DNA of 64,000 bases from an uncultured Planctomycetia bacterium (GTDB lineage: Bacteria; Omnitrophota; Gorgyraeia; Gorgyraeales; Gorgyraeaceae): assembly GCA_964566255.1 (NCBI GenBank), contig CAZMID010000004.1, forward strand, positions 3,441-67,440, given 5' to 3'. Under the pieces are notes generated by a model. The model was given only the letters and a program-made list of their open reading frames with translations. It had not been told where the DNA came from and searched no databases. The position numbers and the translations under genes are program-made. Below, piece after piece: positions 10,275 through 57,646 of the stretch. Position 1 is the stretch's first letter; every line of letters starts with the position of its first letter.

Positions 10275-10276
10275 AT

Positions 10277-11961: not shown

Positions 11962-11979
11962 TATCGACTCCTTAAAAAT

Positions 11980-35122: not shown

Positions 35123-36225
35123 CTTTTTCTTTCTAAAACATTCTCATTTAAAAAACTATACAATGCTTCCGCGACTAATTTGTTCCCTTTTTCATTAAAA
35201 TGAGGGTCAAACCTGAAATAATACTTTCTTTTATCCTGCCTATATTCATGGCTAATTTCAGAAAAGCTGGCGTAAAAAAAGCCTAAATCATTACTTAATT
35301 TACTAAAATAATCTGCATTATTTTCCGACTTATCATCCTTTAATAAAAAGGTTAAAAGGCTTCCTCCATTCTGCTTTAAGGTATCAAGGATGTCCTTAAT
35401 AACAAAAGTGGAAATCCTCTCGTTCAATTCTTTATTGTCAATGTAAAGATATCTTTTATTCTGAGGATATTTTAAAATACCTTTTTTAAAACCCAGCGAC
35501 ACCCCTATTTTTCTCAAAAAGATATTTCCATCAGAAGCTATCCTTAAAAAACCATATAATGCTGAATGTTTACGCAAGCCTCTCTTTAAAAACTCAATTT
35601 TATCCTTCACATATATGGCCCTATCGGGTTTAGGAACCGGAACCCCTTTTAACATCAGCTTTTCATCTTTCAAATTATAATATGGTCTATAATATCGCTG
35701 CACTATATCAGCTGCGAGAAAAGTCCCATCACTTACAACATCCAAATCGCCAGTCACTACAGCGATAATAAGCAAGTCTGGTTTATATTTTTTATATAAC
35801 GATTGAAATAAAATATGATACTGTGTTAAATTATAACCTCTCACACCAGCATTAATCACCTCTACATCTTTATTATTTTTATTACACATGGTCTCTGTCA
35901 AATATGAAAACCTCTTATGCTGTTGAATCCCTAACCCTTCACTAAAAGAATCGCCCAATATTAAAATACGATATACAGAATCTTCTTTATTCCCTATATC
36001 CAATCTTCCACGAATTCCATCTTCATTTATATGATATTTCACTTTCCATTCAAATCCACTGTCTATGGCATCTATATCTGGAATAAGTGACCACCCCAAC
36101 TTTTCATGGTATTGAATAAACTCTCTTTTATCGCTCTCTCCATGAAACCCCGCTATCCTTAATGAGATTTCAGGGATTAAAAATATAACAATAAGTAAAT
36201 AAACCACATATCTAATAGTTTTCAT
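35119..36225 (-). CDS. SGNH/GDSL-family hydrolase or O-acyltransferase with N-terminal membrane anchor
   Basis: 368 aa; LILGDSFSEGLG (GDSx block I), G block, C-terminal FDPHFN (DxxH block V). Confidence 0.6.
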   Translation of the reverse strand: MKTIRYVVYLLIVIFLIPEISLRIAGFHGESDKREFIQYHEKLGWSLIPDIDAIDSGFEWKVKYHINEDGIRGRLDIGNKEDSVYRILILGDSFSEGLGIQQHKRFSYLTETMCNKNNKDVEVINAGVRGYNLTQYHILFQSLYKKYKPDLLIIAVVTGDLDVVSDGTFLAADIVQRYYRPYYNLKDEKLMLKGVPVPKPDRAIYVKDKIEFLKRGLRKHSALYGFLRIASDGNIFLRKIGVSLGFKKGILKYPQNKRYLYIDNKELNERISTFVIKDILDTLKQNGGSLLTFLLKDDKSENNADYFSKLSNDLGFFYASFSEISHEYRQDKRKYYFRFDPHFNEKGNKLVAEALYSFLNENVLERKR

Positions 36226-37154
36226 ATATCGTGTTGTCCCCTTGAAAATAGAAACTTTCCTATAAAATTCGTATAGCTACATGGTAGACAAGTCACAAGA
36301 AATCCTAGATAAAAATACAAACAAAAGGACATTTCTTTGAGTTTAACAAAGAAATAATCCCTTGCTTTAATCTTCATACCCCTTTGTAAATATAGTATAC
36401 CCAGATCAAATTGAAATCTCTGTTTTTTCTTTTTAAGCATATTTGTCGTAATCTTATCTACAAAATTTATATTTTTGTCTATTATATTAACTGATTCCGT
36501 AAGTGCAATATCCTTTCTTCTAGAAAAACTCCCTTCATGAATCCTATATTCCGCAAGAGGTTGATTAATAAAAGTCATTGGATACCGCCTTGACATTCTA
36601 AGAAAAAAATCCCAATCTTCAACAATCTTATATTGTGGATTAAAGAGTCCTATCTCTTTGAAAATATCTTTTCTGACTACAGCCGTTATAATAGGAATGA
36701 AATTCTCTTTCAATAACTCTCTAAAAACCATTCCCCTATGTGGTCGATATATCTCAAATAGTGTGTTATTCCTTCTTCTTCCTTTTTTATCAATTATATA
36801 AGCATCGGAAAAACAAAGGTAAAGACCTCTATCTTCTTCCAATAAAGTCAATCCTACTTTAAGTCTTTCAGGAAGCCAGATGTCATCATGGTCTAAAAAG
36901 GCGATGTATTCACCTCTGGCTACTGCAATCCCCGTGTTTCTGGCAAGAGATAAGCCTTGATTCTCCTTCAGGATATAAGTCAACCGATCCTTATATTTAG
37001 AAATGACTTTACCTGTTCCATCGCAAGAACCATCGTCAACTACTATTACTTCAAAATCCTGATAGCTTTGGTTAAATACACTATCTAGGGTTTTGTCTAT
37101 AAATTGTTCTGCATTATAAGCAGGTATTATAATACTGACTTTTGGTATCTTCAT
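36222..37154 (-). CDS. Glycosyltransferase, family GT2
   Basis: 310 aa; VSIIIPAYNAEQFIDKTLDSVFNQSY, VIVVDDGSCDGT, FLDHDDIW. Confidence 0.8.
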   Translation of the reverse strand: MKIPKVSIIIPAYNAEQFIDKTLDSVFNQSYQDFEVIVVDDGSCDGTGKVISKYKDRLTYILKENQGLSLARNTGIAVARGEYIAFLDHDDIWLPERLKVGLTLLEEDRGLYLCFSDAYIIDKKGRRRNNTLFEIYRPHRGMVFRELLKENFIPIITAVVRKDIFKEIGLFNPQYKIVEDWDFFLRMSRRYPMTFINQPLAEYRIHEGSFSRRKDIALTESVNIIDKNINFVDKITTNMLKKKKQRFQFDLGILYLQRGMKIKARDYFFVKLKEMSFCLYFYLGFLVTCLPCSYTNFIGKFLFSRGQHDI

Positions 37155-38713
37155 CTTTTGCTGGTAAAAAATCCCCTCTTAATTATTGTCTTTGCTATCT
37201 TTTCATTTTTTGAAGCCTTGAAACCAATATATACATTTTGTGCCTTCTTGTGTCTAATTCTCTTTTTTATCTTTATCTTGATTTGATTAGGAACTAACGA
37301 CTTAAAAAACAACATAGGGTCCTTAAAAATACATCGGAGCTGATTCTTCTTTCGCTCTTGACTAACCAACCTAATCACATCTTCTCCCCTCCAGTCTTCT
37401 GTATCTATATTGGGATTACGAATAGATAGGTGATCGAAATCAAAATCTTTTTTAAAATATTTTCTGTCCTTACAAATATTGTAAAGTTCGGTACCTGGAT
37501 ATGGAGTAGCCATGGATATGTGCTGTGCATTACAAAGTCCTAAAGACCTGGCAAAGCGAAAGGTCTCTTTTATTTGTCCTAAAGTTTCTCCTGGCATACC
37601 AACAACCAAAAACAGAATAACTTCTATTCCTATCTTCCGAGCATGTTTAACCAAGCGTGGAATCTTCTCCAGATCTACAGGTTTTTTTATAATAGCTTCT
37701 AATACAGATTTATTTCCTGATTCAACGCCTAGACCAATCTGGTAGCACCCACTTAGTTTCATTTTATCCAGTAGAACCTCATCAAGAGTAGCAACTGCTA
37801 TTCCATTAGGAGTCCGCCATATTAAATCAAATCTTTCTCTTATAATCCCTTCAAAAATATCAAAGGCCCTTTTTCTATCCAGCAACATATTATCATCTTC
37901 AAAAAGAAGCTCTTTTATACCATAAGTATCTACCAAATACCTTATCTCATTTAATATATTTGCCGCTGACCTAGTCCTATATCTCCTACTCCAGACCTTA
38001 TGGGTAGAACAAAACGTACACTTAAAAGGGCAACCTCTTGAAGTCAATATGGATGCATGAGGGGATTTTCGATTTAGACCATGTGCCATTTTGGACCTAA
38101 AATATTTCTCCATGGGTAAAAGATGTCTTGCTGGAAAAGGAAGAGAATCTAAATCTTCTATAAATCTTTTCTTCTCGTTTATCACTGTCCTACCATTAGA
38201 ACGAAATCCTAAGCCATCTATTCTAGATACATCCCCATCCTCCTCTAAATGCTGCAACAAATCAAGGACTACTCTTTCGCCTTCACCTAGAACCACAAAA
38301 TCTACCGCATGATCATTAAAAACCATGAGAGGCTCTACAGTCGGATGCGGCCCACCCATAATAGTTATTATATTGTTGCTTATCTCCTTAGCTATTCTAC
38401 AAATCATATGTGCATTTTTGCGCTGCATTGTAAAAAGACTTGATACTCCAACTACCTGAGGAGAAAATTGTTCGATCTCTTTCCTTATATGACCAGGTGT
38501 CAGGCCCACTAATACTCTTTCATCATCAATCTCTTTTTCATTCTCCAGTCCCTCAACAAAGGCATCTAGTAATCGAACTTCATATCCACTGCGCTCCAAC
38601 ACTGCTGCAATATAAGCCAATCCTAAGGGAACATTCGGATTCATATCGCTCTTGTCCTTCAGCACAAAAGCTGGGGGCTGAATTAACATAATCCTATCTA
38701 TTTTTCTATTCAT
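37151..38713 (-). CDS. Cobalamin(B12)-binding-domain radical SAM enzyme (class B), copy B
   Basis: 520 aa; IMLIQPPAF...VPLGLAYIAAVLERSGYEVRLLD B12-binding domain, SRGCPFKCTFCSTHKVW radical SAM core. Confidence 0.8.
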   Translation of the reverse strand: MNRKIDRIMLIQPPAFVLKDKSDMNPNVPLGLAYIAAVLERSGYEVRLLDAFVEGLENEKEIDDERVLVGLTPGHIRKEIEQFSPQVVGVSSLFTMQRKNAHMICRIAKEISNNIITIMGGPHPTVEPLMVFNDHAVDFVVLGEGERVVLDLLQHLEEDGDVSRIDGLGFRSNGRTVINEKKRFIEDLDSLPFPARHLLPMEKYFRSKMAHGLNRKSPHASILTSRGCPFKCTFCSTHKVWSRRYRTRSAANILNEIRYLVDTYGIKELLFEDDNMLLDRKRAFDIFEGIIRERFDLIWRTPNGIAVATLDEVLLDKMKLSGCYQIGLGVESGNKSVLEAIIKKPVDLEKIPRLVKHARKIGIEVILFLVVGMPGETLGQIKETFRFARSLGLCNAQHISMATPYPGTELYNICKDRKYFKKDFDFDHLSIRNPNIDTEDWRGEDVIRLVSQERKKNQLRCIFKDPMLFFKSLVPNQIKIKIKKRIRHKKAQNVYIGFKASKNEKIAKTIIKRGFFTSKR

Positions 38714-38728: not shown

Positions 38729-40825
38729 TTAAAAACTGATCCTTGATCTCAAAAATTCTTCAAATGCCCCATTGATAGGGAATGTTTCCGGATTTCTATA
38801 GTAAGCATATTCTTTTGTCCTCTGCTCCAAAGCTGCAAGAGGTGGAACTAGTCGTAATATTTGTTTCGGTATTCCCGTTAGTTCAGCGTATAGACTGATC
38901 CAACTAGTTATATATTTTGTTAAATTATACCTATCCAATAAAACACAAAGAGGCAGAGTATTTTTTTTGCGCTCAGAACTTACCAATATTGGATTAAATA
39001 TAAGAGTCGCTAAGTCAAGAAAAGGTAAACACCCTTCTTGAAAATGTTCAAAATCTACTATCTTCAGTTCGTTCTTAGTGAATAAAGTGTTACAAAAATC
39101 ATAATCTCCGTGTTGGGCGCATAGTGGTATAGTAAAGTTTTTAAGCCTACATAACTCTTCCTTTAATCCACCAATAGATTTTTTTGCATCTTCTGTTAAT
39201 AGGCTATGCTTTTCTAATATTTTTTTCTGATCCTCTAAAAATGATATCAGATATGGTGTTGACTCGACCTGTGTCTTTATCGTATGTTTCTGAAAGCTCG
39301 CAAGAAACCTGATCGCCATCTTAATTTCTCGATCGAGATATTCTAATTTTGTCTTTAAACGATCGTTAAAAGTGAATACTGAATTTTTAGCTTCGACAAA
39401 CTCTGTCACCATAAAGGTAACATCATCTATGGTGCCATAGTATAACAATTTTGGGATATTTGAAACTAACCTTGTATCTTTGAGCAAAAAATCAACTCTT
39501 TTTAAATTTTTCGATTCAGCATCCAAAATGTCAATAGATTCTCTATTGCGACAAACTTTGCAAAAATATCTTGGCCTATTTTTATTGTCACTATAAACCC
39601 AATAATTGACTGTAAGGTCATTTCCTGGGCGACTGTCACATTTTACAATCTTTACGTTGGAAGATTCATTAGTTATTAAGCCTGCTAGCCTCAATAATTT
39701 AATCAACCTCGGCTCATTATTTGCTATAGAAGAGCCTTTGACAGCAATAGCAATTATACTCGGCGACAACCATTTCAATAAACCCTTTGGAAGAAACCTT
39801 AATAGGATTCTATTCAAGATTCCTTTTGTAGATGATATCTCTTTTTTTAAATTCTTGATCAAATCCAAAGGGATCACTTCTGATGGTGTTATATAATGCA
39901 TAAAAGCTCCATAAAAATCAATATTCCTAAATCCACTTTCTTTCAGTAATGACCTATATCCCGGTATACCATGGACATGAGTTCTGTATTCACGTTTCAG
40001 AATCAATTTTGTAAGTAGATTAGCTATGGATCTCGGCATAAATGATATAAATGGAATATTCATGTGATCATCGGGATAGCCTGCTAAATATATGTATCCA
40101 ATTCTATTCTCAATCGCCAAGTAGATACACCCTCCTGGCTTAATAACTCGCCTTATTTCCCGTAAAACTCGGAGCTGGATTGTCTTTGGATCTTCAGAAT
40201 ATCTCAGAGCTTTTTCAGCTCGAAGTCCGCGTCCAAATTTCTTCCAATGTCTTTCTAAAACAACTTCTTCTTCAAGAGCAACCCATTCTAGAACCCCACT
40301 CAGAACAACTAAATCAAAAAAATCATCAGCAAAAGGTAATTTCTCAAGCCCGGAGGCTACAGTATGGATATTAGAAAAACCCATTTGTTGCGCACGGATT
40401 CTCAGAAATTCAAGGGTTTCTACTGTCTTATCAACGGCATAAACTTCACTATGAAATTGGGCTGCCGGGACTGCGATACCACCCCACATACTACCAGCAT
40501 CTAAAATTTTTGAATCTTTTGTGCAAGGCCATAAAAATTGGGAATCTGCCCTATTAAAAGATACAAAATGGTCCATATACTGAGGTACTGTCTTTTTAGC
40601 TGTTCCAAGCCAATCACCGCTAATATCAGCAAGCCTATTTAGTTCTTGCATCTTTTCCCGACTGACATTACACCAATATCCAGCTCTATCTCTAAAATCA
40701 GGTGTGTCATTAATAACAGGGTAATCTTTTCTGCACGATGAACAGATCAATTTATTATGATCGTGACTCAAAAAAGAATGGCACTTTGGACAAACTAAAT
40801 CGTCAAAAATACGGATATTCTTCAT
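38729..40825 (-). CDS. Tri-domain fusion: N-terminal Trm112-like zinc ribbon + class I SAM methyltransferase + C-terminal aminoglycoside/choline-kinase-like (APH-fold) phosphotransferase
   Basis: 698 aa; CPKCHS...CSSCRKDYPV; MTase motif I ILDAGSMWGGIAVPAA and LVVLSGVLEWV; C-terminal HGDYDFCN (HGDxxxxN catalytic loop) and IVDFEHF (DFG-equivalent). Confidence 0.65.
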   Translation of the reverse strand: MKNIRIFDDLVCPKCHSFLSHDHNKLICSSCRKDYPVINDTPDFRDRAGYWCNVSREKMQELNRLADISGDWLGTAKKTVPQYMDHFVSFNRADSQFLWPCTKDSKILDAGSMWGGIAVPAAQFHSEVYAVDKTVETLEFLRIRAQQMGFSNIHTVASGLEKLPFADDFFDLVVLSGVLEWVALEEEVVLERHWKKFGRGLRAEKALRYSEDPKTIQLRVLREIRRVIKPGGCIYLAIENRIGYIYLAGYPDDHMNIPFISFMPRSIANLLTKLILKREYRTHVHGIPGYRSLLKESGFRNIDFYGAFMHYITPSEVIPLDLIKNLKKEISSTKGILNRILLRFLPKGLLKWLSPSIIAIAVKGSSIANNEPRLIKLLRLAGLITNESSNVKIVKCDSRPGNDLTVNYWVYSDNKNRPRYFCKVCRNRESIDILDAESKNLKRVDFLLKDTRLVSNIPKLLYYGTIDDVTFMVTEFVEAKNSVFTFNDRLKTKLEYLDREIKMAIRFLASFQKHTIKTQVESTPYLISFLEDQKKILEKHSLLTEDAKKSIGGLKEELCRLKNFTIPLCAQHGDYDFCNTLFTKNELKIVDFEHFQEGCLPFLDLATLIFNPILVSSERKKNTLPLCVLLDRYNLTKYITSWISLYAELTGIPKQILRLVPPLAALEQRTKEYAYYRNPETFPINGAFEEFLRSRISF

Positions 40826-41676
40826 ATAGACAAATCTCTTATTTTATCTTCCACTTTCTTCTCTGCCCAACCCCCCTTTGCCACAATATAGAAAGAGGCA
40901 GAGAAGAGCAAAAAATGCCTTGCTACAAATCCCAAAAACACAACCCATGTGATAAAAATACTTGTGAAGATTTCCAGTAAAAGCAAAAGACATACAAAAT
41001 CGACAGTCTTAGCGTGATCATCCAAGAAATTCTTGATTAGATTATAAAATATACTCTTTTTCTTATTAGCAATCCTATGGGTTTTCTCACTTTTAGTCCT
41101 ATATTCTTTTAGTTCTTCTGATTTAAGGCAGCTCTGAAAAAGAATTTTATAGCCAAACGAGATCAGGTTAGCTGCATAAAACAATGGGATTAATAATGTT
41201 AAATAATAAAATAGCATCATTCCAGATTTTTGAGCCACATAAAGGCCCAGTCCTACCTGAAAACCCAATGTCCCCAGTAAAGCCCCATAAGGATCTAGCA
41301 CGACTCCAGTAATAGAAGTCTGGTTTTTTATTCTTGCAAGATGTCCATCACTCCAATCTAATATTGCTTTTAAGAAAAATATAAAAATTGCAATAAAAAC
41401 CGTCTTGTTTGTAGAGATCGCTAACAAAATGCCCCCAGCTAAGCCCAATAGACCATAAATAATTGATAAGGTATTAGGTTTAATTCTTGTCTTTAACAAA
41501 AAATATACTAATACAGCACTTGATTCCATATACAACCTTGCTTTTAAAAAGGTATAAGGATTTTTTTTCCAGTTGTTAATATATGGGCAATCACTAATCT
41601 TATCCTTATATTGTTCTAATCTAAGCTGCCTGAGTGTTATGTTTTTATTGGTCATATTTACGAACCCTTTCAACAT
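40822..41676 (-). CDS. CDP-alcohol phosphatidyltransferase-family membrane enzyme
   Basis: 284 aa; DWSDGHLARIKNQTSITGVVLDPYGALLG matches D-G-x2-A-R-x8-G-x3-D-x3-D; about 6 TM helices. Confidence 0.8.
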   Translation of the reverse strand: MLKGFVNMTNKNITLRQLRLEQYKDKISDCPYINNWKKNPYTFLKARLYMESSAVLVYFLLKTRIKPNTLSIIYGLLGLAGGILLAISTNKTVFIAIFIFFLKAILDWSDGHLARIKNQTSITGVVLDPYGALLGTLGFQVGLGLYVAQKSGMMLFYYLTLLIPLFYAANLISFGYKILFQSCLKSEELKEYRTKSEKTHRIANKKKSIFYNLIKNFLDDHAKTVDFVCLLLLLEIFTSIFITWVVFLGFVARHFLLFSASFYIVAKGGWAEKKVEDKIRDLSI

Positions 41677-42352
41677 CTCCTATGAAATCAATCTCTACCC
41701 ATTTTAAGCCATTAATGTCCTCAAAACTAAAATCCACTTTCTTAAAAAGATCTGGCAATATATCCTCATAGCCAATATCAAGATTGCCCTTTTCTATATT
41801 ATTTTCTACAATCCTTCGCAGGATATTTGTTGTCGTCTTTTCCATCTTTAAAAAACCAACCCACTCACCCATTAGGTCAAAATCTCCCTTTAGGCCTCTT
41901 TCTATAGTACAGACTCTTCCTTTCTTTATACCTGCTATACATTCCTCTCCAGCATTTGGAGAAACAGTATCAATAACAATAGAATTAACTCCCTTTGCTT
42001 CCATCAATCTTCTTAATATCTCCTTTTCAAAAAAGACATCTCCATCCATTAAAAGAATAGTATCATCCAATTCCTCCCTTGCCGTCCATAAAGAAAGAAT
42101 ACTACCCCTGGAATAATCAGAATTCGCTATCACTCTAATGCTACCCTTAAAAGGAATAGTCTGAATCTTTTGTTCTACCAAATCTTTCCTATATCCTGTT
42201 ACAACAACTACATCTTCTATGCCAAGCTCCTCAAAATGCTCTAAATATCTTTCAATAAGAGTCTTGTTTCTCGTTTCAATTAAACATTTTGGCTTATCAG
42301 TATAATCTCTTATCCTATTCCCTATCCCTGCAGCTAAAATTATAGCCTTCAT
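41645..42352 (-). CDS. Nucleotidyltransferase (LicC/PntC-like cytidylyltransferase for phosphocholine/AEP-type substrates)
   Basis: 235 aa; MKAIILAAGIGNRI (GxGxR NTP-transferase P-loop), KCLIE; sits between the transaminase and the CDP-alcohol transferase. Confidence 0.65.
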   Translation of the reverse strand: MKAIILAAGIGNRIRDYTDKPKCLIETRNKTLIERYLEHFEELGIEDVVVVTGYRKDLVEQKIQTIPFKGSIRVIANSDYSRGSILSLWTAREELDDTILLMDGDVFFEKEILRRLMEAKGVNSIVIDTVSPNAGEECIAGIKKGRVCTIERGLKGDFDLMGEWVGFLKMEKTTTNILRRIVENNIEKGNLDIGYEDILPDLFKKVDFSFEDINGLKWVEIDFIGDVERVRKYDQ

Positions 42353-43434
42353 AAGTTCTTTCTTTTCTTCTCTAGGATAGATTTCAATACTTCAAGAAAA
42401 CCTTTAATGTCGTCTTCTGAAATAAGGCCGACTGTCCCAATGCGAAAAGTCTTATCGCTCAATCCCTTTACAGGAACATATATCTCATACCCCATTCTTC
42501 TGCATTCCTGATAAAGATATTCATAAGTAATCCCATCGGGCAGAAAAACAGTCGTCATTGTATTAGAGAATAAACCTTCCTTTAAATATAACTTTAAACC
42601 CAGATTTAGCAAACCATCTCTCAAAAGCCTCGTTATCTTTGCATAATGCCTTATCCTTTTATCCATACCCTCTTCTATTAGTTCTCTTAACGCTTCCCTT
42701 AATGCATAGAATGTCTGAACAGCTGGAGTAAAAGGTGTCTGACCTTTTCTCTCATAATCAAGGTGTCTAATTAAACTAAGGTAATATCCTTTTTCTGTAC
42801 CTTTTGAACATAATTGAATAAATTTATTCGATGCCAATACAAAAGAAAGACCAGCTGTTCCCCTTATACATTTATTTGCACTTCCTATTATAAAATCAAT
42901 ACCCCAATCTTTAAGGTTAAGTTCCTCACCAGCAATACTAGATATTGCATCTACCATAACCAAAGAACCTTTTTCTTTAGCAAGTCTTGCTAAATCCTTC
43001 AAAGGATTAAGCATCCCTGTGCCTGTTTCATGATGGACAAGATAAGTTATTGCTGGTTTTACTTTACCCATTGCCTCTGAGGCTATATTTAAATCAATTG
43101 CACCAGAGTCTGGAAAATTCACTCTATGCACATCTAATCCATTTAATAATGATATTTCATATGTCCTCTCGCTATACGCTCCGTTAGAAACTACCAGAAT
43201 AGGTTCAAGTGTATTTTTTAATGATAATAAAGAAGCCTCTATAGCTGCTGTTCCAGAACCTGTAAATATCACTGGACTATAACCTTCTGAGCCAGGACAT
43301 ATCTTAAGCAATAGATTGCGTGTTTCTTCAAGTAGCGCTTTAAAATCAAGACCTCTATGGTTTATGTCAGGTCCTAATAGGGCACGCCTTACATTTTCAG
43401 AGATATTAGCCGGGCCAGGTGAAAAGATTATCAT
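42349..43434 (-). CDS. Class V aminotransferase, 2-aminoethylphosphonate:pyruvate transaminase (PhnW/AepZ)-like
   Basis: 361 aa; N-terminus IIFSPGPANIS (cf. LLTPGPLTTS), HHETGTGMLNPL, VDAISSIAGE, SANKCIRG (Lys). Confidence 0.7.
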   Translation of the reverse strand: MIIFSPGPANISENVRRALLGPDINHRGLDFKALLEETRNLLLKICPGSEGYSPVIFTGSGTAAIEASLLSLKNTLEPILVVSNGAYSERTYEISLLNGLDVHRVNFPDSGAIDLNIASEAMGKVKPAITYLVHHETGTGMLNPLKDLARLAKEKGSLVMVDAISSIAGEELNLKDWGIDFIIGSANKCIRGTAGLSFVLASNKFIQLCSKGTEKGYYLSLIRHLDYERKGQTPFTPAVQTFYALREALRELIEEGMDKRIRHYAKITRLLRDGLLNLGLKLYLKEGLFSNTMTTVFLPDGITYEYLYQECRRMGYEIYVPVKGLSDKTFRIGTVGLISEDDIKGFLEVLKSILEKKRKNL

Positions 43435-44939
43435 AATAGACCTTCCCTCTTTAAATATATCTTTGTTAGTCGATTAAAAGCTTGATTACCTTCTTTATCG
43501 AATTTCTCGCATCTTTTAATTTCAGGCCACATTTCCTTTGGAAATCTAACATACATCGCGAATGTCCTTTGTAAGCCTCGGATCTGCTTTTGTCCCAGAT
43601 GCGGCATCTTTATTATAGCCTCGGATCTATAGTCGCCAGCCAAGGCATCTCTATCTAAATAGCCCTTTTCTATAGCAAGCTCTCTTAATTTTGTTCCTCT
43701 ATATGGGTTAAATATATTCACGATGATATTGTCTGCATCTATATTCCTGTTTAACTCAATAGTATCAAAAATAAGCCTCCTTGTTTCCGTAGGAAATCCT
43801 ATAACATTATTCGCGCAAGCCCTTATCTTTGTCTTTTTTGCTATACAAAATGCCTTTATAATAGAACGGTTAGTTACCTTCCTATTAAGCACTCTGTTCC
43901 TAAATTTATAACTTCCATGATCAACACCAATGCTCATCCCTTCACATCCAATCTTCCCCAATTTTAAAATCCTTTCTTCTGTTACAGCCTCTGGCCTTGT
44001 TTCTATCCAAAACGGTAATCCTATATTTTTATATCCCTCTATAAATTCATTGAATCTATCACTATCCATTAAAAGGAAATTTTCAGCTACTATATATAAA
44101 TATTGCAGGCCGTATTGTTTTTTCTTCGATCGTATCTCTTTCATCAAGGTATCTATCTTTCTATACCTATAATAATGACCGTGATGTTTGTATATATCCT
44201 GAAGACTCTTGTTGCAACAAAATGCACAATTATAAGGACATCCTCGATTCATCTCAAAAGAGCCAGCGATATAAACCTTGCCGCCCATTGGCTTATAGAA
44301 ACGTTCTTTTTCGTATATACTCCAATCGGGTTCCGGCAGCTTATTAAGATCTACCAAAGGTCTAACTGGATTCTTGTATATCTTGCGTCCTTTTTTTACC
44401 CATAAGTTTGCAACATGCGTATAGTCTTTTCTATCCTTGATCCTATCTGCTAACTCTACTATAGCGCCTTCTCCTTCTCCGATACATACCATGTCAACTG
44501 CCTTTTCGCGAATAACCTCTTGGGCTGAGAATGTAACATGGATGCCACCTATTATTGTCGGAATCCTTAAATCTCTTATTGCATTTAACAATCTTAACCC
44601 AATCAAATATGTTATTTCTACAACCGAGACTGCTACTAGGTCTGGCTTGAATTCATTAATCAATTTTCTAAAATCGCTGACCATATCAGTCTGTTTAGGA
44701 CGAATACCAAAATCTGCCAGATTGGTATATCTTACCTGCAATGTCTTCACCCTGGCATCATCTCCTGTTTCTTCCCGGGTTTTATAAAAAGTAGTATCGA
44801 ATAACTTGACTTCATGACCAGCCTGCTTAAGACAAGCTGACAATATAGATACGCCCAAAGGAATCAGATTATCCATGAAGCTATTAGCCAAAACCAACAA
44901 CACTCTTATCCGTTTCTTTTTGCTTCCATGGCTATTCAT
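43431..44939 (-). CDS. Cobalamin(B12)-binding-domain radical SAM enzyme (class B), copy C
   Basis: 502 aa; RVLLVLANSF...PLGVSILSACLKQAGHEVKLFD, NRGCPYNCAFCCNKSL. Confidence 0.8.
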   Translation of the reverse strand: MNSHGSKKKRIRVLLVLANSFMDNLIPLGVSILSACLKQAGHEVKLFDTTFYKTREETGDDARVKTLQVRYTNLADFGIRPKQTDMVSDFRKLINEFKPDLVAVSVVEITYLIGLRLLNAIRDLRIPTIIGGIHVTFSAQEVIREKAVDMVCIGEGEGAIVELADRIKDRKDYTHVANLWVKKGRKIYKNPVRPLVDLNKLPEPDWSIYEKERFYKPMGGKVYIAGSFEMNRGCPYNCAFCCNKSLQDIYKHHGHYYRYRKIDTLMKEIRSKKKQYGLQYLYIVAENFLLMDSDRFNEFIEGYKNIGLPFWIETRPEAVTEERILKLGKIGCEGMSIGVDHGSYKFRNRVLNRKVTNRSIIKAFCIAKKTKIRACANNVIGFPTETRRLIFDTIELNRNIDADNIIVNIFNPYRGTKLRELAIEKGYLDRDALAGDYRSEAIIKMPHLGQKQIRGLQRTFAMYVRFPKEMWPEIKRCEKFDKEGNQAFNRLTKIYLKREGLL

Positions 44940-45493
44940 GCAATAACTCCTTTTATACGTCGAGTCAATGCCTCTGGCATAAGAGAAATTCTGGCAGCAT
45001 CTTTTAAACTCTCTGATTCGACTTTTAAGAGTAAAAAAGAAGGACCAGTCTCTTCTATGACATGCGAAAATATCCTAGTCAACTCATTCTCTTTATCGAT
45101 TTTATACACATGATCATATCCTGCCCCACTAGCAATACGTGAAAGATCGATGTCCTTTGAAATGCTTGGTTGATTGCCTGTCGATTGATAAGACTCATTA
45201 TCCAAAACAATATGTATGAGATTTTTTGGTTTAAATGAAGCTGTCATAGCCATGCTCCCCATGTCCATCAAAATACTACCGTCTCCATCGAATATTACTA
45301 CTTTCTTATTAGTATTCAACGCAATCCCTAGACCTACTGCTGAAACAAGACCCATAGATCCAAGCATATAAAAATTGGCCTCTCTATCTTTGGCGCAAAA
45401 AGCATCTCTACTAATCATGCCAGTAGTAAAAAGCGCTACATCCTCATCCTTTAATAAATCCAGTATTACCGTTATAGCGTCGAATCTCTTCAT
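44936..45493 (-). CDS. Phosphonopyruvate (or sulfopyruvate-type) decarboxylase, beta subunit (TPP-binding PP domain)
   Basis: 185 aa; TPP motif GSMGLVSAVGLGIALN...VVIFDGDGSILM...N; follows a PYR-domain ORF and a PEP mutase. Confidence 0.7.
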   Translation of the reverse strand: MKRFDAITVILDLLKDEDVALFTTGMISRDAFCAKDREANFYMLGSMGLVSAVGLGIALNTNKKVVIFDGDGSILMDMGSMAMTASFKPKNLIHIVLDNESYQSTGNQPSISKDIDLSRIASGAGYDHVYKIDKENELTRIFSHVIEETGPSFLLLKVESESLKDAARISLMPEALTRRIKGVIA

Positions 45494-45978
45494 CCTACCA
45501 TTCCTTTCTTCAGGATAATAGCAACAGGCCTGGAGCTCTTATTCATTTCTTCAACTGCCCAATCAATATCCTTTGTAAAATCTTCAGTCAATATTAGAGT
45601 CGGGATACCTAATTCCTTAAGTAAAGGTAACATCTTCTTCCCCATAATAATATGCTCGGGCTCGTCTTGCTGCTGATACCCCCGCCAGGTAATAAACATT
45701 AATACAGGAACCTTGTAAATAAGGTTAAAGGATGTAAGGGCATTAATAATGTTTCCCAGGCCTGAATTTTGAATTAATATACCACTTTTCCTGCCTGCTA
45801 GATAAGCGCCGCTAGCTATACCTAAAGCCGCATTTTCTCTAACTGCCGGGATATAGTCTATATCAGAATCACTTAACGAACCCTTTAATATCTCTTTTAA
45901 GATAGAACAAGGGACTCCGGAAAAAAAAGTAAACCCTTTCTTTTTTAAATGGTCCCAAAAATTATAATACGAAATCAT
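45490..45978 (-). CDS. Phosphonopyruvate decarboxylase, alpha subunit (TPP PYR domain)
   Basis: 162 aa; FFSGVPCSILKEI, ENAALGIASGAYLAG: TPP pyrimidine-binding domain as in split ComD/ComE-type and Ppd enzymes. Confidence 0.7.
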   Translation of the reverse strand: MISYYNFWDHLKKKGFTFFSGVPCSILKEILKGSLSDSDIDYIPAVRENAALGIASGAYLAGRKSGILIQNSGLGNIINALTSFNLIYKVPVLMFITWRGYQQQDEPEHIIMGKKMLPLLKELGIPTLILTEDFTKDIDWAVEEMNKSSRPVAIILKKGMVG

Positions 45979-45990
45979 ATTATTTCTGCC

Positions 45991-47649
45991 TCATTTAATA
46001 AGCGAACAAGCCAATTTGTAATCCTCAAACGAATGGATTTCCAACCATCCTGAATTAATCTCTATCCCGTTTACTTTATGTCCACAGTTTATGATTTCCT
46101 GGATTAGATCTGACAAGTTTGCTTTTTCAAAAATAGGGGCACTGTGGAACGGTTTCCCTCGATAATCATGAGCTGATCTAGAATATATATCCTTGAAGAT
46201 CTCTGTCCCTCTTGAAGACAAGAGCATTAATCCAGGAAATTCATAGTGAGCTTTCTTAAGTTCAATATCCAAACCTATCTTCTTTATCTCTTTTGTAGAG
46301 CTACCCCTAAGTCTTCTTCTTGTATTAATAGGTTTTGAATCTGATATAACCAGATCTACTCTTTTCTTAGGTCCATAATTTTTCGAATCAAAGGTAGAAT
46401 CTAGAAGAATAGTAATATCTTCCTTACTCTGTAAAAGTTGATCTAAGATAAAATAGTCAAAAAGTATATCTGAGTAAGCAATAAAGGTCTTTCCTGTCAT
46501 ATATTCACTAGCACGCATTACAGAATTTAATATTCCTGTTGTCTTATAATCAGGATTACTGATAAGCTTGATACCATCCATATCTATCTTTTCCTTTTTA
46601 TACCCCCCGATTACGCAAATTTCTGATATCCCTGCTTTATTAAAGACCTCTAACTGCCTCTTTAATAAAGGTCTACCATTTATGTCTAACATAGCTATAG
46701 GAATTTCACTAGAAACATCTTTCATAGAATACTCTTCTATATGGTCTCCTGCTGCAGGAATAAATGCTGCTACCTTTTCTTTTTCCGCTCGCAAATAAAC
46801 TCTTTCTGCCTTTTTCATCTGTGGCATACCTTGAAGCTCAAACACCTGCTTCATAGAAGTGATTTTTTCCTCTACACTACCCACTGTTCCTGTCCGTTTA
46901 ATCTCATCAAACACCCCCTCCATAGCCCTGATAGCTGCCCTTATTCCCTGATTTGCATAGATCACCATCTTCACGCCAATGTCTTCTAATTCTTTGGAGG
47001 TAACTTTACAGTAAGTAGTAGGAACAACTATTAAAGGAACTCTATTTTGCCATCTCCTAGCAAAATCAAATATCTCATTGGGCTCACTTGATTTAGAATG
47101 AATCAGTATAGCATCTGCTCCTGCATCTATATAGGTATGGGCTCGTTTTAGAGCCTCTTCCATGCCCCAACCTGCAATTAGCGCTTCTACTCGAGCTATA
47201 ACCATAAAATCCTGGTTTTCCTGTGCATTCTTAGCAGCCATAATTTTCCCTACAAACTCAGGTATAGAAGCAAGCTCTTGCCTGCCAGGGATATAGCTAT
47301 TTACTTTTGGAAACTGTTTATCTTCAATACACACTCCAGCTATACCCGCTGTCTCATACTTTTTAACCATATGAACCACGTTATTTGAGTTTCCATATCC
47401 TGTATCGCAATCAGCAATAACTGGGATTGAAACAGCATCGTTCATTTCACAAGCCCTTTCTAAATATTGTGACATCGTAAGGATATTGGCGTCTGGGACA
47501 GCATAAGAAGTAGATATCTCTAAGCTACTCGCCCATATTCCATCAAATCCATTCCGCTCTACTAATTTTGCACTCAAGCCATCATGTGCACCTACTATTT
47601 CTATTAAACCTCGTCTGTTAAAAAGGCTTCTTAGTTTTGTTGTTTTCAT
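45991..47649 (-). CDS. Fusion: N-terminal phosphoenolpyruvate phosphomutase (Ppm) + C-terminal nucleotidyl(cytidylyl)transferase domain
   Basis: 552 aa; LRSLFNRRGLIEIVGAHDGLSAKLVERNGFDGIWASS, IPVIADCDTGYG, CIEDKQFPK (PEP mutase/ICL superfamily motifs), then FIPAAGDHIEEY...IAMLDINGRPLL...ICVIGGYK NTP-transferase fold. Confidence 0.8.
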   Translation of the reverse strand: MKTTKLRSLFNRRGLIEIVGAHDGLSAKLVERNGFDGIWASSLEISTSYAVPDANILTMSQYLERACEMNDAVSIPVIADCDTGYGNSNNVVHMVKKYETAGIAGVCIEDKQFPKVNSYIPGRQELASIPEFVGKIMAAKNAQENQDFMVIARVEALIAGWGMEEALKRAHTYIDAGADAILIHSKSSEPNEIFDFARRWQNRVPLIVVPTTYCKVTSKELEDIGVKMVIYANQGIRAAIRAMEGVFDEIKRTGTVGSVEEKITSMKQVFELQGMPQMKKAERVYLRAEKEKVAAFIPAAGDHIEEYSMKDVSSEIPIAMLDINGRPLLKRQLEVFNKAGISEICVIGGYKKEKIDMDGIKLISNPDYKTTGILNSVMRASEYMTGKTFIAYSDILFDYFILDQLLQSKEDITILLDSTFDSKNYGPKKRVDLVISDSKPINTRRRLRGSSTKEIKKIGLDIELKKAHYEFPGLMLLSSRGTEIFKDIYSRSAHDYRGKPFHSAPIFEKANLSDLIQEIINCGHKVNGIEINSGWLEIHSFEDYKLACSLIK

Positions 47650-49132
47650 TTTGATCTCCTTTGACTTTCCTAATAATTCTATTCATTAAGCTAATAGGCT
47701 TCTGGTTTAAAAAAATATTAATTTTTACCTTTATAGAATCACTTAGTTTCTGAAACTGTAATTTTAACTTCAGCATGGCCAATATCATTTTCCTCTTCTT
47801 ATACCATGCATATTTAATGTCTCTAGATAATGCCTCTATCCTTTTCTGCAGAGTCTTATTGCTAAGACTGGAGTAATTTATAACCAAACGAGATGCATTT
47901 TCAAGCCTTACCATATACTCATCAACATTTTGAATTATCCCTTTTGACAAAGCATATTCAAAAAGTGTTGACCCGGGATAAGCTGTAGCATAGAAAGTAC
48001 CTATCGTCTTAACGTCTTCTCCGATTAAAAATTCCTTTGTTTCTTCAATTGTTTCAATTGTCTCTGATGGCATCCCAAATACCATTGTAGGACTAGCATA
48101 AATACCAACTTCATTACACCATCTAATAGCCTTTCTATTCTCTTCTACAGTAATCTGCTTATTCATTTCCCTTAGGATAGTTGGGCTACCGCTTTCAATT
48201 CCAACATCTATCTCGTAACAATGGGTATCTTTTAAAATCCTCAAAAGCTCTCTATCTAAACTATTAGCACGTGCATTTATCCGATATGGTATATCCAAAC
48301 CGCTTGCTTTGTATTTTGCGCAAAAATCTATCACCCAATCACGATGCATAGTCATTAATTCATCTGCTATGCAAAATAAATCAGGAGAATATTTTCTACT
48401 TACAATAACCATATGCTCAATAAATCTATCTACGGAATGCTGCACAAAATGCTGTCCAAAATTCCTAGAACAGAAGAAACAATTGTAAGGACATCCTCTA
48501 CTGGAAAATAATACAAACTCAAAAATCTTTTTGCGTTTATCCTTCTGTCTAATATAGTCCCATTGTGTACTACTGGGGTTGATAAAATTGCGATAATAAT
48601 CAATATCTATCAAATCATATGGCGGAATCATAACCTCAAAATCCATGTCTTTCACATGAAGACCTGGCTTGATGACAACCTTTTCATCTCTGCGATATCC
48701 AATCCCATCAAGGTCATCTAAAGCCTTATGGTGTAGAAGGCGTTCTGTCAACTCAGAAACTATAGGTTCACAATCACTGGTAACTATGACATCTACATCA
48801 ATGAATTTTAAGAAAGTTTCTGGCATTGTCGAGGCAACAGATCCACCTGCCATAATTGGGATAGAATCTCCGTATTTCCGGCGGAATAGCGGGACAAATT
48901 CCTTCCAAAAATAGTAAGATGTGGAAATTCCTGTAATACCAAGTATATCAAAATCCAACGCAGCTATATCCTGAAAAGTTTCATAAGGAGTATGTTTTTT
49001 TATGTGAGAATCAACTATTTGTATCTTGTGTCCATTTGCTTTAAGTACGGCGGCAACTGCTAAAAGGCCATGGGGTATTTCGTTCATTGGCCGACTGCGA
49101 TATGTTGGACCCAACAGTAATATATTCGCCAT
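47618..49132 (-). CDS. Cobalamin(B12)-binding-domain radical SAM enzyme (class B), copy D
   Basis: 504 aa; ILLLGPTY...PHGLLAVAAVLKANGHKIQIVD, SRGCPYNCFFCSRNF. Confidence 0.8.
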   Translation of the reverse strand: MANILLLGPTYRSRPMNEIPHGLLAVAAVLKANGHKIQIVDSHIKKHTPYETFQDIAALDFDILGITGISTSYYFWKEFVPLFRRKYGDSIPIMAGGSVASTMPETFLKFIDVDVIVTSDCEPIVSELTERLLHHKALDDLDGIGYRRDEKVVIKPGLHVKDMDFEVMIPPYDLIDIDYYRNFINPSSTQWDYIRQKDKRKKIFEFVLFSSRGCPYNCFFCSRNFGQHFVQHSVDRFIEHMVIVSRKYSPDLFCIADELMTMHRDWVIDFCAKYKASGLDIPYRINARANSLDRELLRILKDTHCYEIDVGIESGSPTILREMNKQITVEENRKAIRWCNEVGIYASPTMVFGMPSETIETIEETKEFLIGEDVKTIGTFYATAYPGSTLFEYALSKGIIQNVDEYMVRLENASRLVINYSSLSNKTLQKRIEALSRDIKYAWYKKRKMILAMLKLKLQFQKLSDSIKVKINIFLNQKPISLMNRIIRKVKGDQNENNKTKKPF

Positions 49133-49144: not shown

Positions 49145-50650
49145 CTAAAACCTCAATAGGGCGAGTCTTTTAATAATGCGTCTATTATCAGGAGATAATA
49201 AGTTATACCCAACTACTTGAGTTATTCCGTAAATAAACGCCATTATCGTAATAATCTGAAATACATTTATACCCTTCATGAATCTTTGTGCTATAAAAGA
49301 TAAAAAGAAACATAAGAAAAAATGTGGTACATTCGGCACAACAGCCTTACGAAGAAAGTCCAGAACAGAAATCGATAGAATCCTACAATAACGAAATACA
49401 TAAAAATTTGATGCTAAAATCCATGGAATAGCTGTACCCCATGCTACTCCTGTAATACCTATAAATCTTATAAGTAAAAGGCTCAAGCCTAAATTGGCCA
49501 CTGCTACAAAACCATTGATCCTTACGGGCTCAATAATCTTGCCCTTGCCTCCGACTACAGCCTGACTTAATATTGCTATCATGATATTAAAAAACCAATA
49601 ACTTAAAAGAATCTTACAGGGTAATATAGAACCTGAAAACCTTACACCGACCCACGCTAAAATAAAGTCATCCACGCTTATCAATGCAATGATAACAATA
49701 GGGATTAATATGCCTGAATGAATCCTCGTCGCATTAATCACCATAGCGTCTCTATTGTTTTTATTCTGCTTGGCAAATTCTGCTACTATAACAGGATATA
49801 ATGGGCTGCCGAGTAAGGCATTAAGCCTTCTTATATAAGTATGAATGATAAAAGCAATAGAATATACTGCAACAGCATTAACACCTAAAATAGCCCCGAT
49901 TATAAGGTTGTCAATCTGATATATAATAAGCCCAAAAATACTGGCGACAAAATACCATCCGCTAAATTTAATAAGTTTATCCCTTAAAGACCTTGGAATA
50001 GGTCTTAATCTGAAACGAAAGTTAGGTATGAGCTTTATTGCAACGACGATGTTCACACAAGAAACTACAACAGTAATAAACTGCAATAGGGCTATGTAAA
50101 ATAAATATGATCCTGAATATGTCAATACTATCAGGGCAAGCGGAATGTTAAAAATTGAAATGACCAGGCTGACCTTACTTATAATATCCATCCGTTGAAA
50201 TCCTTTGAGTACCCCCTGAAATGGAATAACAACCCATACAAACATAGATGAAACTGCATATATTAATAATAAAATCCGACCCTTCACAACTAATTCTGCC
50301 TCTATATGGAATAACCTCTCATAAAAAAAGGACAGGGCAAATAAGGAAATAGCCACTAAAATTCCCAAAACTACAAAAAACTTAATACCGAAATGTAAGA
50401 TATCTGATACTCGATCCTGTTTTCCTTCGCCAAAAAATACTGCAGTAAATCGCGATATCCCTGAAGCCAATCCAAAATCCAATATATTAAAATAACCAAC
50501 AATAGATAATATCAAAACATTCAACCCATATAATCCTAAATCAACATGTCTCAGGATAAAGGGTATCAGAAAAAAACTAGTCAAAACCAAAATGAACTGG
50601 GAATAAGCCGAAAACTGTAAATTGCGACCTAATCTATCTACTACTGACAT
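49145..50650 (-). CDS. Polysaccharide biosynthesis membrane protein, Wzx-like flippase (MOP superfamily)
   Basis: 501 aa, about 12-14 TM helices, Wzx-like N-terminus (RLGRNLQFSAYSQFILVLTSFFLIPFILRHV...GLYG...ILDFGLASGISRF). Confidence 0.6.
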   Translation of the reverse strand: MSVVDRLGRNLQFSAYSQFILVLTSFFLIPFILRHVDLGLYGLNVLILSIVGYFNILDFGLASGISRFTAVFFGEGKQDRVSDILHFGIKFFVVLGILVAISLFALSFFYERLFHIEAELVVKGRILLLIYAVSSMFVWVVIPFQGVLKGFQRMDIISKVSLVISIFNIPLALIVLTYSGSYLFYIALLQFITVVVSCVNIVVAIKLIPNFRFRLRPIPRSLRDKLIKFSGWYFVASIFGLIIYQIDNLIIGAILGVNAVAVYSIAFIIHTYIRRLNALLGSPLYPVIVAEFAKQNKNNRDAMVINATRIHSGILIPIVIIALISVDDFILAWVGVRFSGSILPCKILLSYWFFNIMIAILSQAVVGGKGKIIEPVRINGFVAVANLGLSLLLIRFIGITGVAWGTAIPWILASNFYVFRYCRILSISVLDFLRKAVVPNVPHFFLCFFLSFIAQRFMKGINVFQIITIMAFIYGITQVVGYNLLSPDNRRIIKRLALLRF

Positions 50651-56824: not shown

Positions 56825-57646
56825 CTATGCCTCCATCTTTCTGGCATACGTTGTCATTATATTGCCATAAAAAGGCGGTGATATTTTACCCTTATCAAAT
56901 AATCGAATAAGATTTTTAATAGTAAAATAATCTGTTGTAAAAAAGGGGGTTTCTTTCTTTATAACCCTGTATCCAATCTTATTTAACAATAATTGTACGG
57001 TCTTCTCTGAAAACATCGTTAAATGCTCTTTTCCTAATAATCTAAAGTTACCCTTGAATCTTTTTGCACAGAAACTACTCACATTCGGTAATCCAATAAT
57101 TACAATGCCATTCTTCTTCATGATCGTTTTGATCATCTGCATGAATTCAAGTGGATCCACTAAATGTTCAATTACATGATAAAGCACTACTATATCAAAA
57201 TATTCTCTTGGAAAGGTGTTCTTATCTAGTAAGTCCTTGCATATATTAATTTCCTGGTAGTTGTCTTTTATATACTCTACGCATACATCTGAAATCTCAA
57301 GGCCGTATTTTTCATGTTTATTAGAAATAGCGGAAAGCAAAAAACCTGGGCCACACCCCACATCAAGAAGTCTCCCCGAAGACTGTCTGTTGATAAACGA
57401 AGGTATCCTACCATACCAATTTTTTAATTTGGGACTTCTTTCTAAAAGCATGTTTCTCTTTTTCCCATCAGGATCAAGTGATTGCTGCCAATAGTCTTCC
57501 TTGTATTCCATCTCCAGATAGGGGTTCTGGATAATAAGACTACAATTAACGCATTCGACAAACTGGTTATTTTGCCAATCATAAAAAGTAAACTTAAAGT
57601 CACTCCCCTTACATAAGGGACAATTTTTTCTATATAACTTTTTCAT
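56825..57646 (-). CDS. Class I SAM-dependent methyltransferase with N-terminal Cys4 zinc ribbon
   Basis: CPLCKGSDF...CVNCSL, motif I LLDVGCGPGFL; start probably at MKKLYRKNCPLC. Confidence 0.7.
   Translation of the reverse strand: MKKLYRKNCPLCKGSDFKFTFYDWQNNQFVECVNCSLIIQNPYLEMEYKEDYWQQSLDPDGKKRNMLLERSPKLKNWYGRIPSFINRQSSGRLLDVGCGPGFLLSAISNKHEKYGLEISDVCVEYIKDNYQEINICKDLLDKNTFPREYFDIVVLYHVIEHLVDPLEFMQMIKTIMKKNGIVIIGLPNVSSFCAKRFKGNFRLLGKEHLTMFSEKTVQLLLNKIGYRVIKKETPFFTTDYFTIKNLIRLFDKGKISPPFYGNIMTTYARKMEA

Follow-up and report, generated by a model that had tools for sequence, protein, structure and literature searches.

A fused zinc ribbon, methyltransferase and kinase in a surface-glycan locus of an Omnitrophota bacterium: a candidate enzyme for sugar phosphorylation and methylation

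The window, meaning the whole 64-kb stretch of DNA that was analysed, is a single minus-strand gene array of ~35% G+C. From about 12.2 kb to the window end it is occupied by a surface-glycan locus (~52 kb) of the Wzx/Wzy type. Inside this locus lies the gene under study, here called the target, which encodes a protein with three parts: a Trm112-like zinc ribbon, a class I S-adenosylmethionine (SAM) methyltransferase (MTase) and a small-molecule kinase. The identical protein is also present on metagenome contigs. The gene and its domains are located as follows.

38729..40825, minus strand: target gene, an ATG-to-stop open reading frame (ORF) of 698 aa for a soluble three-domain protein
40691..40798, minus strand: residues 10-45, Trm112-like Cys4 zinc ribbon (invariant Cys; Trm112p and profile matches)
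39731..40690, minus strand: residues 46-365, conserved helical lid and class I SAM MTase core with two insertions (Pfam, Foldseek, motif I alignment)
38732..39730, minus strand: residues 366-698, APH/choline-kinase-type small-molecule kinase domain (K423, E437, HGD574, N579, D591-F-E; AlphaFold2 and Foldseek)

The target is a rigid three-domain unit, in which the ribbon is fused in cis to the MTase and the APH-type kinase follows. It has 0 predicted transmembrane (TM) segments and no hydrophobic segments. The AlphaFold2 (AF2) model of the full-length protein reached a pLDDT of 91.7 and a pTM of 0.91, while residues 366-698 modelled alone gave a pLDDT of 93.2. The ribbon cysteines are C12, C15, C28 and C31, with beta-strands at 18-43 in the model. 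The MTase carries the motifs DAGSMWGG (109-116) and LSGVLEWV (175-182), and Pfam Methyltransf_11/25/31 match residues 103-236 above the gathering threshold (PF08241: E=4.7e-14, 53.2 bits, cut-off 21.2). In the C-terminal part, the motifs HGDYDFCN (572-579) and VDFEHF (590-595) are found. Judged from sequence and model, the bilobal kinase fold and the full catalytic set (beta3 Lys, alphaC Glu, HxDxxxxN loop and metal-binding Asp) are present there.

The Pfam scores of the ribbon and the kinase stay just below threshold in the target itself: 17.7 bits versus 22 for Trm112p (residues 10-39) and 17.9 bits versus a gathering score of 23.2 for APH (PF01636, residues 407-607). Both calls are nevertheless firm because of the conservation in the family, the AF2 and Foldseek structures and the profile matches of the ribbon. 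Conservation was read from an alignment of 43 sequences (relatives at 40-68% identity), of which 35 are matched by Trm112p (best 4.7e-10) and 29 by APH at E<=0.05 (best 5e-10, with distant members reaching 52-68 bits). The Choline_kinase family (PF01633) matches two of the 43 only. In the same alignment the four Cys, D109, G111, M113, W114, G115 and D132 are invariant or nearly so, as are K423, E437, H572, G573, D574, D591, F592 and E593. The invariance of N579 was established in a separate C-terminal alignment, and about 50 further positions of the MTase half are invariant as well. The family profile of the ribbon matches Trm112-like/UPF0434 structures (2kpi, E=3e-5; 6zxw_H, E=7e-5; also 2hf1).

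With Foldseek, the N-terminal part matches class I MTases (probability 1.00), among them RebM, the phosphoethanolamine N-methyltransferases (PMTs) and the Trm112-MTase complex 6f5z. For the C-terminal domain, the closest folds are those of APH(3')-Ia, APH(2''), methylthioribose kinase (MtnK) and N-acetylhexosamine 1-kinase (NahK), with E=2e-8 to 1e-6 and probability 1.00; NahK (TMq 0.54) and MtnK (0.53) give the best TM-scores. These nearest kinase folds all phosphorylate hydroxyls of sugars or aminoglycosides. PDB sequence searches with the target and with profiles returned only generic MTase, Trm112 and marginal Rio2/ACAD11 kinase matches.

An earlier note, written from the sequence alone, had called the same three domains, and Pfam, AF2, Foldseek and conservation agree with it: Methyltransf lies above threshold, and APH is below it in the target with matches in most aligned members. 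The motifs it quoted (Cys4, DAGSMWGG, LSGVLEWV, HGDYDFCN and VDFEHF) are all present, and the family-wide conservation of the four Cys and of key residues in DAGSMWGG, HGDYDFCN and VDFEHF shows that they are not coincidental. On degeneracy of the MTase motifs, which it had named as a point to check, motif I is non-canonical, as the middle Gly of GxGxG is replaced by Met throughout the family (G111-S-M113-W114-G115; compare G-A-G-A-G in 1xxl and G-C-G-I-G in 3mgg), yet D109, D132 and the variant loop itself do not change.

Homologous fusions, for which the earlier note had proposed a search, are numerous. Among 5.8 billion proteins, 159 matches were found, more than 100 of them full-length (~700 aa) at 40-68% identity; the named relatives are annotated as methyltransferases only. 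Species-level genomes with full-length members belong to Pirellulales, Dehalococcoidia, lineages of the candidate phyla radiation (CPR), Desulfobacterales, Elusimicrobiales, Omnitrophota and Lentisphaerae, and further to Gammaproteobacteria including Coxiellaceae, Paracoccaceae and, in the archaea, Methanosarcinaceae. All of them are metagenome-assembled genomes. A profile of the kinase domain collected 56 clusters at E<=1e-30 and 308 at E<=1e-10 from 1.84 billion representatives, comprising ~700-aa fusions and many stand-alone kinases of ~335 aa. A tblastn search against plasmids gave MTase-core matches only, the Klebsiella match being a housekeeping MTase. The family was not found described in the literature on its architecture, on N-methyl-AEP biosynthesis (AEP, 2-aminoethylphosphonate) or on neighbourhoods of PEP mutase (Ppm).

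In distant relatives the two catalytic halves are encoded separately. In at least 15 loci, the ribbon and MTase form an ORF of ~350-390 aa and the next ORF, often overlapping, is an APH-like kinase of 240-390 aa (split loci: L026, L031, L034, L038, L040, L044, L045, L053, L054, L057, L059-L062 and L071-L073). The kinase lies upstream of the ribbon-MTase ORF in L048. For the stand-alone kinases, usable neighbourhoods came from L083, L084 and L088, two other contigs being too short. Locus L088 repeats the layout of the window in split form, with Wzx, MTase (378 aa), kinase (332 aa), a 513-aa protein, GT2, GT4 and GT2 in that order. Fusion of the MTase and the kinase in some lineages and their adjacency in others is a pattern typical of activities that serve one pathway step; on this genomic evidence, the two are functionally coupled across the family.

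In the window, a complete phosphonate cassette is inserted between the flippase gene wzx and the target. Along the direction of transcription, the genes around the target are the following.

49145..50650, minus strand: Wzx-type flippase with 13 TM segments (PF01943/PF13440, TM count)
47618..49132, minus strand: B12-binding radical SAM enzyme, first gene after Wzx
45991..47649, minus strand: Ppm fused C-terminally to a MobA-like NTP transferase (TIGR02320, 337 bits, above cut-off; PF12804 at residues 319-407)
44936..45978, minus strand: split phosphonopyruvate decarboxylase (Ppd), alpha 45490-45978 and beta 44936-45493 (TIGR03297 halves, 140.6 and 179.9 bits)
43431..44939, minus strand: B12-binding radical SAM enzyme within the cassette (PF02310 and PF04055)
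42349..43434, minus strand: AEP transaminase-like gene (TIGR03301, 300.8 bits versus a cut-off of 360.8)
41645..42352, minus strand: MobA/LicC-type nucleotidyltransferase, candidate PntC-type cytidylyltransferase (PF12804; IPCT/DIPPS-like full-length match)
40822..41676, minus strand: CDP-alcohol phosphotransferase (CDP-OH_P_transf), membrane protein with at least five TM segments, last cassette gene (PF01066)
37151..38713, minus strand: B12-binding radical SAM methylase-like gene, 15 nt downstream of the target (NF038361, 302 bits, cut-off 575)
36222..37154, minus strand: GT2 glycosyltransferase, the most constant downstream partner (PF00535)

The order nucleotidyltransferase, CDP-alcohol transferase, target and B12 radical SAM gene is as the earlier note had stated, and the stop codon of the transferase overlaps the start of the target by 4 nt. 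The LicD-like function that it had placed nearby is absent: no LicD was found among the window ORFs scanned with Pfam, and the head-group transferase is the PF01066 protein. A choline transporter is absent at the target locus too. The nearest NCBIfam families of the transferase are the AIP, PIP, DIPP and PGP synthases, which use phosphorylated acceptors, and the nucleotidyltransferase also shows weak similarity to MurU. Ppm-nucleotidyltransferase fusions are common, and cytidylyl activation of AEP is the described PntC route (PMC6697681). The head group made by the cassette is likely AEP because the Ppm-NTP-transferase fusion, the split Ppd and the AEP transaminase-like gene all lie upstream.

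How constant this arrangement is was examined in 66 distinct full-length members (window, genomes and metagenomes), where the number of informative loci differs by position. The gene immediately upstream is a CDP-alcohol transferase, overlapping or within ~160 nt, in 12 of 53 loci and Wzx in six; in 41 of the 53, the transferase is missing from this position. Ppm occurs within 10 kb upstream in eight of 32 loci, all eight of them transferase-adjacent, and is absent from this range in the other 24. The family gene is thus enriched in Ppm neighbourhoods (8/32) and is not a constant component of them. The members beside a transferase are scattered over at least eight separate branches of a neighbour-joining tree, where sisters lack it (e.g. 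the window versus L091 and L092, or L094 versus L003 and L093). The same adjacency returns in the split-gene relatives L034, L040, L053 and L078 and beside the stand-alone kinase of L083.

Immediately downstream, a class I MTase is found in 21 and a B12 radical SAM gene in 19 of 51 informative loci, and never both. Further downstream follow DegT aminotransferases (16/21 genome loci, 15/23 metagenome loci), a TuaG-like GT2 (18/21 genome loci; for metagenome loci, 20/23 have it no more than 10 kb downstream), 4,6-dehydratases including a bona fide CDP-glucose 4,6-dehydratase, glucose-1-phosphate cytidylyltransferase (in L010, TIGR02623, 349 bits) and a cupin. Upstream, Wzx and a soluble protein of 600-670 aa are usual, and Wzx directly precedes the target homologue in cassette-less loci (L080-L082, L088). 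The typical order in the family is Wzx, MTase-kinase, a second methylase (class I or B12 radical SAM), amino/deoxy-sugar genes, GT2 and GT4. A scan for Walker A plus LSGGQ motifs found no ORF for an ABC ATPase in the 64-kb window, nor in 19 of 20 other family loci.

The position between Wzx and the target homologue appears to be a swap site for cassettes that supply anionic substituents. In L081 (6805-9994; ENA contig TANS21-1 scaffold_4), it is occupied by an ATP-sulfurylase/PK-domain protein and a sulfotransferase. The phosphonate cassettes themselves come in more than one form. The AEP type is seen in the window, in L019 and in others, whereas L015 (5527-9076), L078 (1217-6787) and L083 (837-4293) have a hydroxyethylphosphonate type: a fosfomycin-like early pathway with a Fom1-like cytidylyltransferase-Ppm fusion, Ppd, a phosphonate-type Fe-ADH and a B12 radical SAM enzyme, ending in the CDP-alcohol transferase. 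This gene content suggests a cell-surface decoration with hydroxyethyl- or hydroxypropyl-phosphonate. In L014 (6073-9976, Omnitrophota), the target homologue is preceded by a HisC-like aminotransferase, a nucleotidyltransferase, a nucleotidyltransferase-DUF2284 fusion and a CDP-alcohol transferase, and no Ppm was found within 10 kb of the homologue; this cassette may represent a route to a CDP-amino-alcohol head group.

From these data, we tentatively favour the view that the target is a soluble cytoplasmic enzyme that phosphorylates and methylates a sugar of a lipid-linked glycan in a Wzx/Wzy-type pathway, most likely leaving a methylated phosphate. The kinase domain would phosphorylate a hydroxyl of a sugar residue that belongs to the undecaprenyl-linked repeat unit or to its activated precursor. 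The MTase domain would subsequently methylate the same residue, most likely at the new phosphate, to give a methyl phosphate. In this scheme, repeat units would be decorated before flipping, and no growing chain would be terminated, because the protein has no coiled-coil ruler and no ABC-transporter partner. The phosphonate/CDP-alcohol cassette would be an optional add-on that recurs at one position across the family; probably it modifies the same region of the glycan, and it does not supply the substrate of the target. Most members have no nearby Ppm or CDP-alcohol transferase, and the family therefore has a role that is independent of them. Moreover, AEP, hydroxyethylphosphonate and the product of the HisC-like aminotransferase already carry phosphorus, so that the cytidylyltransferase can be fed without a kinase. 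The alternative offered by the earlier note, in which a sugar hydroxyl is phosphorylated and then methylated, is closer to this best-supported reading than its first suggestion.

Two precedents for such chemistry are known, and at this level the architecture, which the earlier note did not recognise from described pathways, is represented among them. In E. coli O9a, the 708-aa WbdD (MTase 1-210, kinase 211-459, coiled coil) adds a phosphate to the 3-OH of the terminal mannose, and then methylates this phosphate (PMC3482155). In Klebsiella O7, the N-terminal part of ORF6 places first a phosphate and then a methyl group on the 3-OH of the terminal rhamnose; neither its MTase nor its kinase is related to that of WbdD, and the nearest structure of the kinase is the APH-family AmiN (PMC11231755). 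As the kinases of ORF6 and WbdD are unrelated, MTase-kinase pairs have arisen more than once.

The target shares with WbdD (E. coli O9a/Klebsiella O3, PDB 4AZS) the single polypeptide of ~700 aa, the N-terminal class I MTase followed by a kinase and the setting in a surface-glycan locus, and RebM is among the nearest structural neighbours of the MTase in both. In the favoured reading, kinase and MTase would also act one after the other on a single sugar, as they do in WbdD. Homology between the two, however, is not detectable: against E. coli HS WbdD (L089:17967-20093), the best BLASTP match has E=2, and hhalign gives a probability of 2.4% that covers the SAM-binding core only. WbdD was found neither among the PDB sequence-search matches nor among the top 50 Foldseek matches of either model. 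Its kinase is eukaryotic-protein-kinase-like, whereas that of the target is of the APH type. WbdD has a C-terminal coiled-coil ruler, while the target ends with the C-lobe helices of the kinase (602-693) and has no long terminal helix. WbdD terminates chains together with the WbdA polymerase and feeds the Wzm/Wzt ABC transporter (in E. coli HS, wzt and wzm adjoin wbdD), whereas the target stands beside Wzx and adds the Trm112-like ribbon. A further comparison was dropped: the pair E180-W181, at the position of WbdD H132-H133, had been considered as excluding a phosphate acceptor, but the ordinary Methyltransf_11 protein 3mgg has VLEHL there, and the Glu is generic.

The likeness to K. pneumoniae O7 ORF6, which was compared by description, lies in the MTase followed by a kinase that is nearest to an APH-family enzyme. 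ORF6 differs in its minimal kinase of 223 aa, its carbohydrate-binding-module (CBM)-like domain, coiled coil and C-terminal GT2 modules, and in its ABC-transporter pathway. The target thus resembles WbdD and ORF6 in design (domain order, setting and the fold class of sugar-hydroxyl kinases) and is not a member of their families. For the ribbon, the closest parallel is given by the Trm112-MTase holoenzymes (Haloferax Trm112-Hvo_0019, PDB 6f5z, TMt 0.66), where a Cys4 ribbon of the Trm112/UPF0434 type is likewise paired with a class I MTase, though supplied in trans. In the target, the ribbon is present in cis, a kinase is appended and the gene belongs to a glycan locus, whereas the holoenzymes act as RNA or translation-factor MTases.

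Several observations weigh against sugar phosphorylation and methylation as the function. The CDP-alcohol transferase adjacency, seen in 12 of 53 loci and on at least eight branches, looks too frequent to be explained by the usual gene content of glycan loci (a rate that was not compared with the background for glycan genes) and likely reflects a functional tie to the phospho(no)-head-group step, through the same target residue or a shared intermediate. Homology to WbdD, a coiled coil and an ABC ATPase are all missing, whereas both precedents operate in ABC-transporter pathways. Motif I of the MTase departs from the canonical form in the alignment of the SAM loop. Finally, we know of no documented case of methyl phosphate on repeat units of a Wzx pathway.

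The alternative that survives best places the enzyme in the metabolism of the head group, and is possible, though unlikely overall. Here, the target would act on the small molecule attached by the cytidylyltransferase and the CDP-alcohol transferase: the MTase would N-methylate AEP or phosphoethanolamine in the manner of a PMT, and the kinase would phosphorylate an amino-alcohol, like a choline or ethanolamine kinase, or else the acceptor polyol that transferases of this class often require. This widens what the earlier note had primarily suggested, with a phosphocholine-like or N-methyl-AEP product. One part of that suggestion stands, since a phosphorus-containing head group is made next door and such cassettes are enriched beside the family: the transferase is immediately upstream in 12 of 53 loci, including all eight Ppm-positive ones, and it stays with the family in split-gene and stand-alone-kinase loci. 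That the AIP, PIP, DIPP and PGP synthases take phosphorylated acceptors would also give the kinase a task. The other part fits less well, as in 41 of 53 loci the transferase is not immediately upstream and in 24 of 32 the 10 kb upstream are free of Ppm, the head groups bring their own phosphorus and the hydroxyethylphosphonate-type loci (L015, L078, L083) offer no amine to methylate.

The comparison with known head-group enzymes is similarly divided. The PMTs (4kri, 3uj7) share the class I fold, are among the top Foldseek matches and act only on the phosphorylated amine, which fits the order of kinase and then MTase. Their scores are, however, no better than those of many unrelated class I MTases or of sugar O-MTases such as RebM (5e-10 versus 8e-10), and their identity to the target is 11-16%. 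The Lic pathway (LicA, LicC, LicD) and PntC-type tailoring likewise set a kinase of the same superfamily, a LicC/MobA-type nucleotidyltransferase and a head-group transferase side by side, and the Ppm-nucleotidyltransferase fusion, Ppd and AEP transaminase of the window match the described AEP route (PMC6697681). They differ in that the window has CDP-OH_P_transf in place of LicD, lacks a choline transporter and has its kinase fused to an MTase, and in that most family members are without the cytidylyltransferase/transferase pair. The few Choline_kinase matches (2/43) are a further point in favour of head-group metabolism. In the window locus itself, the MTase domain may N-methylate AEP.

A more specific proposition, considered rather doubtful, sees in the family a core phospho-decoration enzyme that shares its product or substrate with the CDP-alcohol transferase. 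It has two versions: methyl phosphate on the repeat units of a Wzx pathway, or else a phosphorylated acceptor that the kinase makes for the transferase, whose class typically needs one, combined with N-methylation of the transferred AEP or amino-alcohol.

It is improbable that the target is a salvage or activation enzyme, in which an anomeric sugar 1-kinase (like NahK, AmgK or MtnK) would feed the nucleotidyltransferase and the MTase would methylate the same sugar. The best TM-scores of the kinase domain do belong to NahK and MtnK, but the differences in TM-score between the kinase matches are small. Nucleotidyltransferases are frequent neighbours (the TIGR02623 enzyme of L010; in the window 41645-42352, with its weak MurU similarity), yet many loci have none near the gene, and the neighbouring cytidylyltransferase/4,6-dehydratase pair uses glucose 1-phosphate and requires no dedicated kinase. 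Methylation of a free sugar would also be unusual.

Very improbable is the view that only one catalytic half is active and that the MTase-like module, with its GxMxG loop, has ceased to bind SAM and now helps the kinase as a scaffold or by binding its substrate. The replacement of the middle Gly of motif I by Met-Trp would agree with this. On the other side, relatives at 40-68% identity all retain the variant loop, D109 and the ribose-binding D132, the ~50 further invariant positions of the MTase half are more than a scaffold would need and the Pfam MTase models score well above threshold.

Least probable of all is sugar editing as by GenP in gentamicin biosynthesis, with phosphorylation of a hydroxyl for elimination by a pyridoxal-phosphate (PLP) enzyme and N- or O-methylation of the amino-deoxy sugar: DegT-family PLP enzymes and 4,6-dehydratases are among the commonest neighbours, aminoglycoside kinases are top fold matches and B12 radical SAM and class I methylases accompany the gene as in aminoglycoside pathways, but glycan loci of every kind commonly contain DegT and dehydratase genes, and the nearest DegT genes of the window are 9 and 20 kb away from the target.

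If the sugar is indeed phosphorylated and methylated as favoured here, MTase-kinase tailoring would extend beyond the coiled-coil chain terminators of enterobacterial ABC-transporter pathways to a widespread Wzx-type module in Omnitrophota, CPR lineages, Chloroflexota, Planctomycetota and methanogens. Methyl phosphate on Wzx repeat units would bring into this setting a chemistry that has until now been known only from chain termination in ABC-transporter pathways. If the kinase makes an acceptor and the head group is N-methylated, bacteria and methanogens would be able to make zwitterionic glycan caps with N-methylated AEP or a phosphocholine-like group de novo, with no need to take up choline. 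Either outcome would make the family a third lineage of MTase-kinase glycan enzymes, independent of the other two and with the Trm112 module built in. The cis-fused ribbon represents a natural single-chain Trm112-MTase holoenzyme, and the cassettes that stand directly before the gene in about a quarter of the members, on many tree branches, offer a handle on the poorly understood attachment and trimming of phosphonates at cell surfaces. The family, whose members all come from uncultured organisms and whose function is predicted, is a well-defined target for enzymology.

The remainder of the window identifies the host and completes the glycan locus. The LigA of the window is 72-76% identical to its closest database relatives. 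As the organism-named relatives are all LigA of Candidatus Omnitrophota (closest named 72-74%), the host is an Omnitrophota bacterium. The glycan locus contains a GT4-family initiating transferase, an EpsG-like polymerase candidate, Wzx, several GT2/GT4 enzymes and a UDP-galactopyranose mutase, as well as a nonulosonic-acid set of NeuB, CMP-sugar synthetase, a NeuD-like protein and a formyltransferase. Its low-coordinate end is flanked by housekeeping genes.

3868-12039, minus strand: housekeeping genes LigA, RmuC and RibBA

At least six B12-binding radical SAM genes lie in the glycan locus (61746-63137, 60340-61716, 47618-49132, 43431-44939, 37151-38713 and 21272-22774, all on the minus strand), together with a SPASM radical SAM gene (20178-21275). 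This unusual density suggests extensive C-methylation of sugars or phosphonates. The gene directly downstream of the target (37151-38713) contains an assembly discrepancy at ~38349-38383: JGI contig L002 ends there, and ENA contig L001 is shorter at this place, with 10 nt against 33 in the window, so that the gene falls into two calls of 124 aa and 391 aa. Either strain heterogeneity or an assembly artefact accounts for the difference.

Just upstream of Wzx, a soluble protein of 620 aa is encoded (50634-52496, minus strand) that has no Pfam or NCBIfam match. The 600-670-aa proteins at the same position in related loci show weak matches to 'LIC12162', the BFO_1060-family glycosyltransferase and TIGR04396. 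Given the adjoining genes for NeuB and CMP-sugar synthetase, the 620-aa protein may be a nonulosonic-acid transferase. A second and smaller protein with a zinc ribbon and a class I MTase (283 aa; 56825-57676, minus strand; weak Zn_ribbon_CSL at residues 12-50) is encoded next to the CMP-nonulosonate synthetase and NeuB.

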